NCBI GenBank assembly: GCA_017475605.1
Contig: JAFVFD010000002.1
Span: 199,432-231,431, forward strand
DNA: 32,000 nt
Origin: Alphaproteobacteria bacterium
Lineage (GTDB): Bacteria > Pseudomonadota > Alphaproteobacteria > Rs-D84
Reading direction: 5' to 3'
Shown here: positions 10,251-15,761 of the stretch, one piece after another
Position numbering within the stretch: the first letter of the stretch is position 1
How the letters are laid out: each line of letters starts with the position of its first letter
The notes under the pieces: generated by a model
Database searches by the model: none
What the model saw: the letters and a program-made list of their open reading frames with translations, nothing else
What the model was told of the DNA's origin: nothing
Translations under genes and position numbers: made by a program

Positions 10251-10291
10251 CAAAAAAACATAGTAAAACCCCAAAATAAAGGCAAGAAATA

Positions 10292-10335
10292 TTCTTGACA
10301 AAATACTTGACAAATAGAGTTTTTTGTATTATCTA
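10292..10335 (+). promoter_or_regulatory. tandem TTGACA element plus -10-like hexamers upstream of the alpha-CTD-repeat gene
   Basis: TTGACA at 10295-10300 and 10307-10312. TATCTA lies 17 nt after the second copy, or TG-TATTAT at 10325-10332. The element is near-identical to 14767-14793. Confidence 0.45.
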
Positions 10336-10385
10336 TTTGTATGGGTCGGGCAGGATGGCCTTAACACAACCAAACGGAGTGAAAA

Positions 10386-12209
10386 ATGAGAAATCCGACA
10401 AGAAAACAACAACGCGCTAAACAAAACGCTATAGAATCCAGAGAAAACGCATTAAAAAACCAATTGAAACTGGACGAAAACGATGCGCAAAAAATAGAAT
10501 ATATTTTAAGTATGTTATTGGATCTTGATGCGAATAAAGCACGTGATATCATCAAAAACACCTCGTTTCGCTATTTGATTCAATCGCGCCAATCGGATAC
10601 TGCAGACAAACAAAATTCTCTTAAATGTCCTTTGGCATTGCATGCCATTGTGGTTGCATTATCAACATCCGGCGAAGATATTAACAATATCTTGAGTGAA
10701 ATGTCAGATTCTGCGATTAATTCATTGAAAGAATCTATCGCCATTGCAAAAACACAACCCTGTCCGGACAAAGCGTCTATCAACAAACTTATTGCTGAGT
10801 ATAAAGAAAAACGAAAAACAAAAAGAACTGACGAATGGCACACAGACAGCAATGGTGACACATATAAAGAATCACGCGCATTAACAAAAAACGAAATGCT
10901 GGATAACGAACGCAAATTAAAATCCGCCACCGTTACAGCAAACGTTATAGACTTATGGGACGATGCAATAGCAGAGTTGGACAAATGGTCTGTTGCCGTT
11001 GATACTTTCAAACGCGATTCACAAACTGTTGAACAGCAACAAATTGGGGCGCGAAAAGACCCATCTGATAATCAGAAACAAGGCCAAACCGTTCCTGATG
11101 AAATATTGTTTATGCGGGTTGGCGAATTTTTGTCTGTTCGTACGGCAAATCGCCTTAAAGAAGCCGGCATTGAATATATATGTGATTTGATTCAATATGG
11201 CAAATCTAACGTTAAAAAAATACACGGATTAGGTCCAAAGGGATATCACGAAATCTTTTCGTACCTGTTGCCGCGACACCTTGGCTTAGGGTCTGATATA
11301 ACGCTGTCTGATGAATCTTTACAGGCGATTAAAAAATTCAAATCTAATCTGGCCAATACCGACAAGTTAGATTTGGATATCCGCGAAACTAATTTGTCAA
11401 AACGTACAAAAAATTGCTTGTTGGGTGCTGGTATTAAGACTATTGGCGAATTAATCAAAAAGACCAAAGAAGAACTGTATAAAATACGTGGCTTTGGTCG
11501 TCGCTCAATGGTTGATATCGAAGACATGTTGAATAAAATGGATTTAAAATTAGCAACGCCGATAACTGCAAAACCAGATTTATCACAAATTCGCATCGCG
11601 GATTTGCGCTTTTTGGGTTGCGCCAAGAATCCTTTGATTGTCGGCGGTATTGATACTGTTGATAAGTTAATCAAAAAGAACAAACAAGAACTGCGTAAAA
11701 TACGTGGTTTGGGTCCCAAAGCGATTCAGAATATTATTTACTCTTTGGAAAAAATGGGTCTAGAATTGGCCAAGCCAACACCTAGAAAAACAAAAACTGT
11801 TAAAAAGCCACAAGTGGTTACTGCCCAACCCAAAACAATGTTAGACGTCAAAGCATTAGAAGCGCAGTTGGCTGCATTGGTTGAATTATATAAAAATGCC
11901 GAAGAAGACATGGCCAATGCCAAAACAAGACGTTTGGCAATCATGATGCAAATTGGCGAACAAAGCGATGATGATAAGAAAATCGAACAACTGTCCGATG
12001 CATTACAAACCGAAAACGCATCTATTAAAGAACATGCTGTTACGATGGAAAATTTGCGTCCTGCAAAAGAATTGTCAGACAAACTAACCGCCGCAAAAAA
12101 TGCTAAAAATGATGCACAAAAAGCATTAGATGCAGCAGAATCAACACTGCAATCTTTAAACACAGAGATAGCAGCATTGTTGGCACAAGCAAAACAAAAT
12201 TCTAAATAA
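10386..12209 (+). CDS. hypothetical protein with three tandem RNA polymerase alpha-subunit C-terminal-domain (alpha-CTD, helix-hairpin-helix)-like repeats and a C-terminal coiled coil
   Basis: GGAG lies 6 nt upstream of the ATG. Repeat cores are LSVRTANRLKEAGIEYICDLIQ...IHGLGPKG, LSKRTKNCLLGAGIKTIGELIK...IRGFGRRS and LGCAKNPLIVGGIDTVDKLIK...IRGLGPKA. From memory these align to E. coli alpha [22 protein letters not shown]...TPNLGKKS. The last ~130 aa are heptad-like and rich in Ala/Lys/Glu/Gln. Confidence 0.8.
   Translation: MRNPTRKQQRAKQNAIESRENALKNQLKLDENDAQKIEYILSMLLDLDANKARDIIKNTSFRYLIQSRQSDTADKQNSLKCPLALHAIVVALSTSGEDINNILSEMSDSAINSLKESIAIAKTQPCPDKASINKLIAEYKEKRKTKRTDEWHTDSNGDTYKESRALTKNEMLDNERKLKSATVTANVIDLWDDAIAELDKWSVAVDTFKRDSQTVEQQQIGARKDPSDNQKQGQTVPDEILFMRVGEFLSVRTANRLKEAGIEYICDLIQYGKSNVKKIHGLGPKGYHEIFSYLLPRHLGLGSDITLSDESLQAIKKFKSNLANTDKLDLDIRETNLSKRTKNCLLGAGIKTIGELIKKTKEELYKIRGFGRRSMVDIEDMLNKMDLKLATPITAKPDLSQIRIADLRFLGCAKNPLIVGGIDTVDKLIKKNKQELRKIRGLGPKAIQNIIYSLEKMGLELAKPTPRKTKTVKKPQVVTAQPKTMLDVKALEAQLAALVELYKNAEEDMANAKTRRLAIMMQIGEQSDDDKKIEQLSDALQTENASIKEHAVTMENLRPAKELSDKLTAAKNAKNDAQKALDAAESTLQSLNTEIAALLAQAKQNSK
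11100..11768 (+). repeat. three alpha-CTD-like coding repeats (about 11100-11291, 11376-11552, 11589-11768)
   Basis: Protein-level repeats as listed for the CDS. Repeats 2 and 3 are also similar at DNA level: 11451-11500 ttaatcaaaaagaccaaagaagaactgtataaaatacgtggctttggt versus 11667-11714 ttaatcaaaaagaacaaacaagaactgcgtaaaatacgtggtttgggt. Confidence 0.8.
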
Positions 12210-12225
12210 AAAAAAGGATACCTTA

Positions 12226-12915
12226 ATGGCGAATTTCGATATTAAACCATCAAAATGGCTGAACGAATCTAAACAAGGCAACTTTGTGTTCGCACCCGTT
12301 GGGAATGTTTGTAATGTCCAGATTTTTGATAAAATCAGCATGGAAAAATGCGCAGAAATGTTGGGCAACCTGGCACAAATAATTGCGCAATTACCCGCAA
12401 AACCAATTTATACAGCATCGGCAAAAATTGTATCACCATACGACATATCGCCAGATATATTCGTTTTTGATGTTATGATTAATTCTAGTGGTGGCGATGT
12501 AAATGTATATAAATCAATTTCGTCATTGTTTGCATTGGCAAAATCACGTGGCGCGATTGTTCGCACCCAGAATATTGGCTCGGCGGCCAGTTGCGCCAGC
12601 ATGCTGGCAATTCAGGGCACCCCGGGTTATCGCGTAATGTATGATACCGCATGTAACTATATCCATTTCGGCAAAACTACATTAACAGTCGAACGCGCAG
12701 ATGAATTTGATATTGCGACCCAAAACTCAAAAATCAATCGCGAACAGGTTCGCAAAGTTTATCAGGCATATACGAAACTGACACCGGACGAGATAAAAAA
12801 ATTCATCACTGTCGAAGGTGCCGGCAACTTATTCGCACGCAAATCCCTTGAAAAAGGTGTATGCGATTGGATTTTGACAATTGACGGCAAACTTATTGGT
12901 CGCAAAGGTCGATAA
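12226..12915 (+). CDS. ClpP-like (S14 family) serine peptidase, divergent orphan copy
   Basis: AAGGA lies 7 nt upstream. INSSGGDVNVYKSI...IGSAASCASMLA...NYIHFG parallels the ClpP motifs INSPGG, GQAASMG (catalytic Ser, here Ser122 at 12589-12591) and VMIHQP (catalytic His, here His147 at 12664-12666). The position of the third triad residue (Asp) is unclear. There is no terminator between this gene and the upstream gene. Confidence 0.75.
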   Translation: MANFDIKPSKWLNESKQGNFVFAPVGNVCNVQIFDKISMEKCAEMLGNLAQIIAQLPAKPIYTASAKIVSPYDISPDIFVFDVMINSSGGDVNVYKSISSLFALAKSRGAIVRTQNIGSAASCASMLAIQGTPGYRVMYDTACNYIHFGKTTLTVERADEFDIATQNSKINREQVRKVYQAYTKLTPDEIKKFITVEGAGNLFARKSLEKGVCDWILTIDGKLIGRKGR

Positions 12916-12924
12916 AGAACTATA

Positions 12925-14741: not shown

Positions 14742-14766
14742 ATTTACCTGGCGCAAATCGTCAAAA

Positions 14767-14810
14767 ACTTTGACAAAAATACTTGACAAAATAATATTTT
14801 TGACTATATT
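14767..14810 (+). promoter_or_regulatory. tandem TTGACA element with TTGACA-N16-TATATT promoter for the Arg-rich membrane protein gene
   Basis: TTGACA at 14770-14775 and 14783-14788, and TATATT at 14805-14810. The core TTGACAAAAATACTTGACAAAATA equals 10295-10316 apart from two extra A. Confidence 0.5.
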
Positions 14811-14844
14811 TATATCAAACAAATACAAAACAAGGGATTTGTCC

Positions 14845-15678
14845 ATGTTCGAAAGATTAAAAATGAAAATGGCTGCACGTCGCGTTGAACGCAACAAACG
14901 CGCGCGCCGCAATCGTCGCAACCGCCGTCCGTCTTTCTGGGCGCGTGTTTGGAGTGTTATTTGTTGGCCTTTCCGTAAAATTTGGCAATTTATTTGCTGG
15001 TTGTGGCGTTTGATTTGTCGCTTTATCCGCTGGTTGTGGCGCGTTATTTGCGGAATCAATGTAATTGGCCTGTTGAATATCGCATTATTGGTCGCGATTA
15101 TAGTTTTATGTTCTATGTTGATTATCGACATTGTTAATGCCACACGCAAACCGGTCGTTATTGTTGCAGATCCGGTGCCGACATCCACAATTTCCAAAAC
15201 AATCAATGTGCCGGTCATCGCAGAACCAACAACAAAACCTGTTTCCGCAAATGTTGCGCGGTCGTCTGTTCGTCGTCCTTTGCCAAAGACCAACACTTTG
15301 CCAATCGCACGTGAAAAAACAAATCGCATGGTAGCCGAACCGATTCGCGTTGTCAAAACAACACCGGATATCGTTGCCGAAAAACAAACCGCACGCATTA
15401 ACAACAAAATGTATGGCGATGTTATTATTGACAGCCGCGGTGCAGCAAAAATGTTAAACAACGGTTCTGAAATTACTGGCAATTTATATTTACAAAATAT
15501 GCGCAAATATGTTTTGCCATGCGATATCAAGGTTACCGGCAATATGTTCGTTCGTGATGTCAATATGTTACAGTTCTGTGGCGATTTTGAAATCACAGGC
15601 AACATTTATGTAAGCCCACGTTCTTCGTTCGGACCAATTCCACGCAGTGCGCATCTGGGCGGTCAGGTAATTTTATAA
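14845..15678 (+). CDS. membrane protein (277 aa): Arg-rich N-tail, Trp/Cys-rich repeat, TM helix, Pro/Thr linker, C-terminal TGN repeats
   Basis: The ORF-track start at 14770 is the TTG of the promoter TTGACA, so I use the ATG at 14845 (AAGGGA lies 7 nt upstream). The sequence runs MFERLKMKMAARRVERNKRARRNRRNRRPS, then WSVICWPFRKIWQFICWLWRLICRFIRWLWRVICG, then the TM helix INVIGLLNIALLVAIIVLCSMLIIDIV. Three ~20-aa repeats follow: ITGNLYL, VTGNMFV and ITGNIYV. Confidence 0.7.
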   Translation: MFERLKMKMAARRVERNKRARRNRRNRRPSFWARVWSVICWPFRKIWQFICWLWRLICRFIRWLWRVICGINVIGLLNIALLVAIIVLCSMLIIDIVNATRKPVVIVADPVPTSTISKTINVPVIAEPTTKPVSANVARSSVRRPLPKTNTLPIAREKTNRMVAEPIRVVKTTPDIVAEKQTARINNKMYGDVIIDSRGAAKMLNNGSEITGNLYLQNMRKYVLPCDIKVTGNMFVRDVNMLQFCGDFEITGNIYVSPRSSFGPIPRSAHLGGQVIL

Positions 15679-15705
15679 AACAAGTTTTCATGTTAGCTCC
15701 CCTAG

Positions 15706-15735
15706 AAAACGGCCATGGTATTTGGGCCGTTTTTA
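15706..15735 (+). terminator. intrinsic terminator after the membrane protein gene
   Basis: AAAACGGCC (15706-15714) pairs with GGCCGTTTT (15725-15733) around a 10-nt loop, followed by a T-run. Confidence 0.7.
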
Positions 15736-15761
15736 TTTATGTGTATTTAGCCGAATTTTTG

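Follow-up and report, generated by a model that had tools for sequence, protein, structure and literature searches.

ClpP peptidases (MEROPS S14, PF00574), the C-terminal domain of the RNA polymerase alpha subunit (alpha-CTD, PF03118), the HigB/RelE/ParE toxins and the variable loci described as defence islands or polymorphic toxin loci are the known systems closest to a group of plus-strand genes, g1 to g4, of an uncultured Rs-D84 or Ca. Enterousia-type alphaproteobacterium from the ruminant gut. The genes lie on contig JAFVFD010000002.1, and the window is the whole stretch of 32,000 nucleotides (positions 199,432 to 231,431 of that contig) that was analysed. A sequence-only reading of the window had taken the four genes for a single AT-rich insertion that encodes a proteolysis-gated toxin or sensor module. 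Comparison with related loci points elsewhere: the region is very probably a composite of three evolutionary layers and not one acquired module. The locus is a chromosomal variable slot that holds domain-shuffled genes of uncharacterised families together with a divergent ClpP-like subfamily. Members of the Rs-D84 order have genomes below ~1 Mb, are fermentative and probably depend on partners (PMC12306168). The related loci compared with the window (L-numbers; P-numbers denote proteins of the g3-type family) come from rumen and gut metagenome-assembled genomes that are labelled Ca. Enterousia or uncultured Alphaproteobacteria and include a circular chromosome of 958 kb.

The product of g2 has the clearest relationship to a known family. 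It matches Pfam CLP_protease with an E value of 3.5e-12 and 47.0 bits (cut-off 20.2), and a profile of its own family aligns with ClpP chains of the PDB over ~140 residues (E 5e-13). Ser122, which the sequence-only reading had already singled out in a ClpP-like peptidase, and His147 are invariant across 23 sequences of the family. The canonical Asp position aligns to Ala199, and Glu197, two residues upstream, is nearly invariant. In contrast to ClpP, the first ~75 residues form a family-specific region that does not align, so that the part with the axial loop, where the ATPase docks, is not recognisable. There is likewise no adjacent ClpX or ClpA gene; no ClpX, ClpA or ClpC unfoldase was found in any neighbourhood of the ClpP-like gene that was examined. 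Against the curated NCBIfam models of ClpP and phage proteases g2 scores 36 bits, compared with cut-offs of 120–249 (249 for ClpP). Its similarity to ClpP-related phage head maturation proteases (NCBIfam NF045542, PHROG 1684) is comparable to that with cellular ClpP, but g2 has no structural phage genes nearby and is inherited vertically at one chromosomal site. At 29298–31355 on the minus strand the window encodes a ClpB-type disaggregase of 685 aa without N-terminal domain and with an M-domain coiled coil. This is the sole AAA+ Clp protein of the 32 kb and has no IGL/IGF loop. Considered as a ClpA partner of g2, it was rejected as a ClpB with middle domain and without IGL loop.

The alpha-CTD array proposed for g1 was confirmed. 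PF03118 matches three stretches of the protein with an E value of 1e-35 and 121.7 bits (cut-off 23.8), and in repeat 2 the LS(K/V)R...NCL motif with the DNA-contacting Arg is retained. Unlike RpoA, g1 has no alpha N-terminal domain (TIGR02027, 121 bits versus 227.8, profile positions 201–298 only). Its three clear copies stand in tandem inside a protein that begins with a module named N1 and ends in a coiled coil (CC), at the place where orthologues have a helix-turn-helix (HTH)-like motif. The alpha-CTD is also known as an accessory domain of BREX PglW, and the alpha-CTD-like segment of PglW was the sole match in PADLOC-DB v2 (to g1, E 1.7e-9). The scan of g2, g3 and g4 against that database gave no match to a defence family.

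The C-terminal domain of g3 is like HigB/RelE/ParE toxins such as V. cholerae HigB2 (PDB 5jaa) in its predicted beta-alpha-alpha-beta4 topology. It differs from them in its place at the C-terminal end of a 561-aa protein (it is internal in P0045 and in the L014 protein), in an extra alpha/beta subdomain of ~70 residues, in the lack of an adjacent antitoxin gene and in the lack of a profile match. CapRel, to which the logic of the block had been compared, shares with g3 the general idea only, namely a single polypeptide that joins a toxin domain to a sensing or regulatory part. In CapRel the toxin is a tRNA pyrophosphokinase of RelA/SpoT type and not a RelE fold; we found neither a sequence nor a fold basis for the comparison, and g3 matched no PADLOC model. 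Finally, the slot resembles defence islands and polymorphic toxin loci in its fixed position among core genes, in a content that varies between species, in domains shuffled round a constant module, in a GC content below that of the flanks and in a recent inter-species recombination tract. In contrast to such loci, it holds one or two genes only and no recognised defence, immunity, secretion, integrase or mobility genes.

Two conserved gene blocks and their junction

In this three-layer reading, the first layer is the conserved left block CarD-x180-143aa-PFOR with the divergent, clade-specific ClpP-fold peptidase gene g2, ancestrally followed by the convergent CtpB gene. The second is a slot before and after the ClpP-like gene whose content varies; in some lineages it is filled by fast-evolving, low-GC mosaic genes. 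These are assembled from a few modules restricted to the clade, namely N1, a slot for DNA binding (an HTH motif or the alpha-CTD array), a leucine-rich repeat (LRR)-like segment, a helical region, a domain of predicted RelE/HigB fold and the C-terminal CC; g1 and g3 are two such genes, and g1 reached or left the genome recently by homologous exchange. The third layer is the clade-conserved right block g4-g5-secG-rnc-lepB-comM, which a rearrangement joined to the left block. The comparison described below demonstrates the composite architecture itself, the core status of g2, g4 and g5, the confinement of the mosaic family to the slot, the persistence of mosaic genes after loss of the peptidase and the recombination tract.

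The four plus-strand open reading frames (ORFs) were recovered where the sequence-only reading had placed them (Table 1), and independent gene calls in three public metagenome contigs with an identical locus give 607, 229, 561 and 277 aa for g1 to g4. The ORFs and the public gene calls also confirm PFOR to the left and secG-rnc-lepB to the right. The four genes do not make up the complete plus-strand block: the fifth small gene g5, which belongs with g4, had been missed.

In the ancestral layout CarD-x180-143aa-PFOR is accompanied by the divergent ClpP-like gene and the convergent CtpB gene, then by Fic-APH-M23-TyrRS. About 30 related loci retain the order arginase-Rho-SSB-CarD-x180-143aa-PFOR, with PFOR proteins at 80–93% identity. 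When one genome per species was scanned, the ClpP-like family was detected in 34 species; by tblastn its gene lies 100–200 nt from the PFOR start, in divergent orientation, in about 28 of the 34. In about 13 loci it stands alone between PFOR and CtpB. Since the position beside PFOR is kept in so many species, g2 is, judged by gene order, a core gene of the clade in core synteny with PFOR rather than cargo. In L017 (10001–11433) the interval between PFOR and CtpB holds a tandem pair of ClpP-like paralogues with 40% and 38% identity to g2. Nearly all relatives also carry, beside PFOR, a Cys-rich secreted-type protein of 180 aa (x180; 5676–6218, minus strand) and a lipoprotein-like protein of 143 aa (6277–6708, minus strand). 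Neither has a Pfam or NCBIfam match, so that the 'bamE' label of the 143-aa ORF is unsupported.

A corresponding picture was obtained for the other end of the block. The description of g4 as an Arg-rich membrane protein was confirmed, and about 550 homologues of it were found at 100% coverage. The protein consists of an Arg/Lys-rich N-terminus, 11-aa W/C/R repeats, a transmembrane (TM) helix and a nearly invariant LRR-like C-terminal domain. For the latter, the LRR protein 8z5u was matched at E 8.4e-4, single stretches being weak, and Pfam returned no LRR family. The tandem 11-residue repeats (ICWLWRLICRF / IRWLWRVICGI) occupy aa ~46–64 (14981–15037); their copy number differs among the 550 homologues, and the C-terminal ~90 residues are almost invariant. 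The arrangement g4-g5-secG-rnc-lepB-comM is present in L048–L051, L055 and L056, and its order persists down to relatives of about 50% identity, others being at 89% and 76%. What lies upstream of g4 varies among these relatives and bears no relation to g1, g2 or g3, and the block is far from PFOR. By this synteny g4 and g5 are core genes of the secG-rnc-lepB block.

As g2 is syntenic with PFOR and g4-g5 with secG in relatives, the window appears to consist of two fused conserved blocks. A lineage-specific rearrangement probably joined them between g3 and g4, at ~14715–14770, displacing CtpB-Fic-APH. A four-gene insertion is not compatible with this double synteny. Of the four genes, g1 and g3 are variable, accessory-type genes, and g2 and g4 are core. 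All four genes occur together in this one species only, an outcome that the reading itself had named as speaking against a proteolysis-gated toxin or sensor module, and that idea was not upheld. Nor does the block qualify as a genomic island: g2, g4 and g5 are syntenic in relatives, and only g1 and g3 are shifted in GC content.

The mosaic genes g1 and g3

Module N1 has no match in Pfam or the PDB. Its iterated hidden Markov model (HMM) recognises only the g1-type genes of L004, L006, L023 and L029, with a weak match in L054. The HMM of the CC module, which is common to otherwise differing mosaic proteins, matches in L004, L006, L011, L012, L014, L023, L029, P0044 and P0049. Searched as a whole against the PDB, the g1-type protein profile gave coiled-coil noise only. 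Orthologues of g1 at the same position in L004/5 and L006 have N1 and CC in common with it at 33–41% identity and lack the alpha-CTD array. At the corresponding slot their alignment reads LTxxELAxxLGITKAQ, which is HTH-like, and weak HTH Pfam matches occur in L006. The g1-type gene follows the ClpP-like gene in L023 and L029. Repeats 2 and 3 of the alpha-CTD array in g1 (11409–11499 and 11625–11715) are spaced by 216 nt (72 codons) and are still 75% identical in DNA over 91 nt, which indicates that the array arose in part by internal tandem duplication.

A metagenome scan with the g1-type alignment found 3 loci only. Among them is L052, from another species, whose PFOR shows 93% protein identity and about 83% DNA identity. 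The L052 locus contains a g1 with 95% amino acid identity and a ClpP-like gene with 69%, then CtpB-Fic-APH, and has neither g3 nor g4. A sliding comparison of the two loci showed a DNA identity of ~83% in PFOR, 95–99% from ~9900 to ~12250 (2.3 kb), and a drop to 83, 73 and 56% inside g2. The edges of this tract lie within the 5′ end of PFOR and within the first ~100 nt of the ClpP-like gene. Because the identity of the tract exceeds the ~83% background so clearly, the g1 allele and its promoter have, on this evidence, recently been exchanged between species by homologous recombination, independently of the ClpP-like allele.

Scans of Pfam, PHROG, NCBIfam and PADLOC gave no significant family for g3 or g4, and an exhaustive HMMER search of 1.84 billion representatives recovered 15 relatives of g3 only. 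A module map of the mosaic family was built with iterated module HMMs. P0045 (L009) combines the LRR-like module, the RelE-fold domain and a C-terminal coiled coil of KTMLDVKA type, a tail that was recognised by eye and missed by the CC HMM. A 1383-aa protein of L014 has the LRR-like module, the RelE-fold domain and CC; P0044 (L045) and P0049 (no locus assigned) have the LRR-like module and CC; P0042 (L010) has the LRR-like module, the helical region and the RelE-fold domain; and P0051 (L046) has the LRR-like module and a long remainder without other modules. The LRR-like HMM detected its module in 19 sequences. In the PDB, the match of the g3 module to the SlrP LRR had an E value of 0.086, which is not significant, and no LRR family was returned by Pfam.

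The RelE-like domain that had been read in g3 had modest support at the level of the fold, and found none in Pfam or in PDB-sequence profiles. An AlphaFold2 (AF2) model of aa 377–536, calculated with three homologues (pLDDT 82.8, pTM 0.80), has a beta-alpha-alpha-beta4 core of RelE/HigB/ParE type and an extra alpha-alpha-beta-beta-alpha subdomain. Its best Foldseek match in the PDB was HigB2 (5jaa_D, E 9.7e-3, probability 0.99), with further matches to two HigB complexes, S. pneumoniae HigB (6af4) among them, and to HigB1 (7nbu), RelE (2khe) and ParE2 (7r5a). Nine of the 17 best PDB matches are toxins of the HigB/RelE/ParE superfamily; the toxin matches have probabilities of 0.6–0.99, E values of 0.01–0.2 and target-normalised TM scores of 0.40–0.57. 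In the four aligned sequences Arg64, Tyr66, Lys83, Gln86 and Lys87 (numbered in the fragment that starts at aa 377) are invariant. Searches of g3 with the Pfam toxin families (PF05016, PF05973 and relatives) gave nothing at E <= 1, a profile of the domain against PDB sequences gave noise and no toxin, and Foldseek of the model against viral structures gave nothing consistent. A single-sequence AF2 model of full-length g3 was unusable (pLDDT 35). No antitoxin gene lies beside g3, which is preceded by the ClpP-like gene with its terminator and followed by g4.

All members of the g3 family with a readable locus (L009, L010, L012, L014, L045 and L046) are located between PFOR and CtpB. In L046 the order is that of the window, the ClpP-like gene and then the LRR-family gene. 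In L010 and L045 the ClpP-like gene has been lost and the mosaic gene kept. As the ClpP-like gene often stands alone and the mosaic gene persists without it in these two loci, no obligate coupling of protease and toxin is seen.

Two side observations concern the slot and its surroundings. In L011 (1511–2065) and L012 (9357–9965) an extra ORF of 184 or 202 aa, respectively, lies between the CC mosaic gene and the ClpP-like gene; it overlaps the extended ClpP-like frame, which is open upstream of the homologous ClpP-like start, and may be a gene or a fragment. Downstream of CtpB, the ancestral layout has a gene for a Fic-domain protein and then one for an APH-like kinase. In L004–L046 the Fic gene is more divergent between species (32–42% identity) than its neighbours (60–90%), so that the variable zone may extend beyond the slot.

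Composition, promoters and borders

The AT-richness noted for the block applies to the block as a whole and stems from g1 and g3 only. With a GC content of 0.391, versus 0.449 in the left and 0.441 in the right flank, it is the lowest 5.5-kb stretch of the 32 kb. GC content and GC at third codon positions (GC3) are 0.382 and 0.336 in g1 and 0.385 and 0.326 in g3. The values for g2 (0.416 and 0.391) and g4 (0.441 and 0.428) are inside the range of the window's ordinary genes, a comparison that includes omp324 (0.407) and an ABC transporter (0.412). Values of 0.38–0.39 also occur at 2001–3500, 21001–22500 and 24001–25000, so moderate dips are not confined to the block. In relatives the mosaic genes, and often the ClpP-like gene too, are below PFOR and CtpB in GC content. 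Low GC is thus a trait of the family; it does not point to a recent arrival from outside.

As had been noted, the units of g1 and g4 are each preceded by a tandem TTGACA element; there are exactly 2 in the 32 kb, whereas shuffled sequences predict 0.03. At g1 the element belongs to a promoter of sigma-70 type whose -10 is extended (TTTTGTATTAT). Relatives have a single TTGACAAA at the position of the g1 promoter, sometimes with a degenerate copy upstream, and in these genomes the promoters of both loci commonly consist of TTGACAAA and an extended -10 of the form TTTTGT(A/G)TTAT. Promoters of g4 orthologues carry three tandem copies of TTGACA in L050 and L051 and one in L048; a degenerate second copy is found in the PFOR-side promoters of L004, L006 and L045. 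As a marker of a regulon or module the element was rejected, being a recurring promoter form of the clade that is found at orthologous promoters of loci that are unlinked in relatives.

An imperfect inverted repeat of 38 nt (10243–10280 / 15732–15769) brackets the block of the sequence-only reading almost exactly, with a perfect 14-nt core (TTATATCACAAAAA / TTTTTGTGATATAA). A transposon end was considered and rejected: the core is the extended -10 (TTTTTGTGATATAA) of two outward-facing promoters at the block edges, that of PFOR on the minus strand and that of g5 on the plus strand. Therefore, neither the tandem TTGACA nor the inverted repeat argues for co-acquisition. Hairpins that fit the terminators proposed for the three transcription units were found, after g3 by a hairpin scan and after g2 and g4 by eye. 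In agreement with the sequence-only reading, the borders have neither a tRNA nor an integrase gene and lack direct repeats, and an Rfam scan of 9800–16400 detected no RNA family.

Table 1. Features of the locus, with positions counted from the first nucleotide of the window
Feature	Position	Strand	Basis or remark
PFOR gene	6711–10217	-	Pfam domain list; left anchor, block arginase-Rho-SSB-CarD-x180-143aa-PFOR
Exchanged DNA tract (PFOR 5′ end, divergent promoter, all of g1)	9900–12250	none	sliding identity against L052:3500–5850
Duplicated -35-like TTGACA upstream of g1	10295–10312	+	part of the sigma-70 type promoter
g1, 607-aa mosaic protein (N1 domain, three alpha-CTD domains, C-terminal CC)	10386–12209	+	
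g1 module N1, clade-specific domain	10452–11018	+	iterated HMM
Array of three alpha-CTD-like helix-hairpin-helix domains	11097–11765	+	Pfam PF03118
CC module (KTMLDVKAL motif, then coiled coil of ~120 aa)	11811–12194	+	HMM; common to differing mosaic proteins
g2, 229-aa ClpP-fold serine peptidase	12226–12915	+	start 16 nt after g1
Hairpin and T-run after g2, probable terminator	12931–12956	+	by eye; automatic scan silent
g3, 561-aa mosaic protein (unique N-terminus, LRR-like module, helical region, Pro/Thr/Gln linker, predicted RelE/HigB-fold domain)	13029–14714	+	
g3 LRR-like module (...LP..I.G.fDCS... / ...IDCSfSI.SLD.L.GKLP..LK.L.VQ repeats)	13332–13604	+	HMM
g3 C-terminal domain, aa 377–536	14157–14636	+	AF2 model, Foldseek
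Terminator-like hairpin after g3	14717–14738	+	hairpin scan
Duplicated -35-like TTGACA of the g4 promoter	14770–14788	+	
g4, 277-aa core membrane protein of the clade	14845–15678	+	homologues, alignment, synteny
Hairpin and T-run after g4	about 15709–15735		by eye
g5, 69-aa membrane protein	15796–16005	+	always after g4 in relatives
secG-rnc-lepB	16054–17948	-	right anchor, conserved block g4-g5-secG-rnc-lepB-comM

Competing readings and possible function of the slot

We give hardly any credence to the reading of the four genes as one acquired module, in which the ClpP-like peptidase gates the g3 toxin, with g1 as an alpha-CTD mimic and g4 as a membrane partner. It could draw on the shared plus strand between minus-strand blocks, on the lowest GC content of the window, on domain calls that largely hold and on the tandem TTGACA common to the g1 and g4 promoters. 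It conflicts with the fixed position of g2 beside PFOR in about 28 of 34 species and of g4-g5 beside secG, far from PFOR, in relatives; with the restriction of the combination to one species; and with L052, which has the same g1 and g2 and yet neither g3 nor g4. Moreover, g4 is normal in GC content, no PADLOC defence family was matched, and tandem TTGACA occurs at both loci in relatives where these are unlinked. Highly improbable, too, is a decayed prophage or capsid-module remnant, with g2 as a ClpP-type prohead protease and the coiled-coil protein as its scaffold. Phage scaffolding proteins are coiled coils, and g2 is about as similar to the ClpP-related head maturation protease of NCBIfam and to those of PHROG (E 2e-9) as to cellular ClpP, but all scores are far under the curated cut-offs. 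No capsid, portal, terminase or integrase gene was seen in about 45 loci, and the chromosomal position is the same across 34 species. The idea was rejected after a scan of 2.9 million viral contigs with the ClpP-like family had found no relatives.

A clade-specific, undescribed protease-controlled conflict system made up of g1 and g2, and possibly g3, seems quite unlikely to us. The peptidase would dock on or cleave the CC tail at the KTMLDVKAL boundary, after the Pro/Thr/Lys linker, and would thereby release or activate variable heads that act as sensors or effectors, the RelE-fold domain being an example. Stated for the slot as a whole, and equally unlikely, this would be a dedicated conflict locus, in which a partner-less ClpP-fold peptidase processes proteins with a constant CC tail and interchangeable heads (alpha-CTD or HTH DNA binder, LRR-like sensor, RelE-fold RNase) and alleles are swapped between species. 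A gene ending in CC is found directly upstream of the peptidase gene in the window and L052, in L004/5, L006, L009 and L014, upstream of it with the 184/202-aa ORF between in L011 and L012, and directly downstream in L023 and L029. Gaps of 12–16 nt suggest co-transcription, the peptidase retains Ser and His, and variable heads on a constant tail, together with the inter-species exchange of alleles, resemble diversifying conflict loci. On the other hand, the ClpP-like gene is alone in most species, and L045 (with a CC-tailed gene) and L010 (with a mosaic gene) have no peptidase. Both g3 and P0051 adjoin the peptidase yet have no CC module. The g1 alleles of the window and L052 are 95% identical in amino acids as against 69% for the ClpP-like alleles, so there is no signal of co-evolution, and PADLOC gave no matches. 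Rather doubtful is the view that g1 and g3 encode secreted effectors directed against a eukaryotic or bacterial partner, with the ClpP-like peptidase as a mere neighbour. The host-directed effectors that the sequence-only reading had offered as its alternative remain in consideration for g1 and g3 only. Genomes of about 1 Mb with partner dependence, LRR-like repeats that weakly resemble the SlrP LRR, a hypervariable architecture in a family confined to the clade and a common C-terminal module that could serve as a secretion or translocation signal would fit such a role. Against this, no signal peptide or TM segment was read from the g1 and g3 sequences, the window and related loci contain no secretion system, the LRR assignment is not significant, and the RelE-fold and HTH/alpha-CTD domains suit intracellular bacterial targets equally well.

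We therefore retain the three-layer composite. Its ClpP-like gene would encode a core peptidase resident at the site, which may process mosaic proteins and is not required for them, and the mosaic genes would be diversifying at a recombination hotspot. Since the gap between them is 16 nt, g1 and g2 are probably co-transcribed as one operon from a strong sigma-70 type promoter. The g1 product would bind DNA in the cytoplasm and form oligomers by means of its coiled coil, and g2 would be an active peptidase with a Ser-His pair, without the canonical ClpP N-terminal region and without a nearby ATPase partner. With its own promoter and terminator g3 would form an autonomous unit, and its RelE/HigB-fold domain might be an mRNA-cleaving toxin module that is restrained by its own N-terminal domains and not by a separate antitoxin. 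For the slot we favour a role in conflict or interaction. On a tentative view, the mosaic genes are possibly of an intracellular defence or abortive-infection type; that they encode partner- or host-directed effectors is rather doubtful.

Several points weigh against parts of this interpretation. The functional reading is much less certain than the architecture, and all functional statements are ones that we infer. The LRR-like label of g3 rests on the repeat pattern and on the non-significant SlrP match, and the RelE/HigB assignment on one AF2 model from a 4-sequence alignment with Foldseek E values of 0.01–0.2. In at least five lineages (window/L052, L004/5, L006, L009 and L014) a CC-tailed gene is directly upstream of the ClpP-like gene, and this adjacency could reflect a real functional pairing.

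The idea of a mobile defence or toxin module made up of the four genes has thus proved to be a false lead. The cues that looked strongest, namely the plus-strand block, the dip in GC content, the promoter element and the absence of housekeeping annotation, are ordinary features of the clade. Pfam offers no model for the N1, CC, LRR-like or g4 families, and organisms of the Rs-D84 type are uncultured. Gut Alphaproteobacteria with genomes below 1 Mb keep one fixed slot for clade-restricted, domain-shuffled proteins, and variable genes in genomes so reduced are likely to matter for the interaction with phages, partners or hosts.

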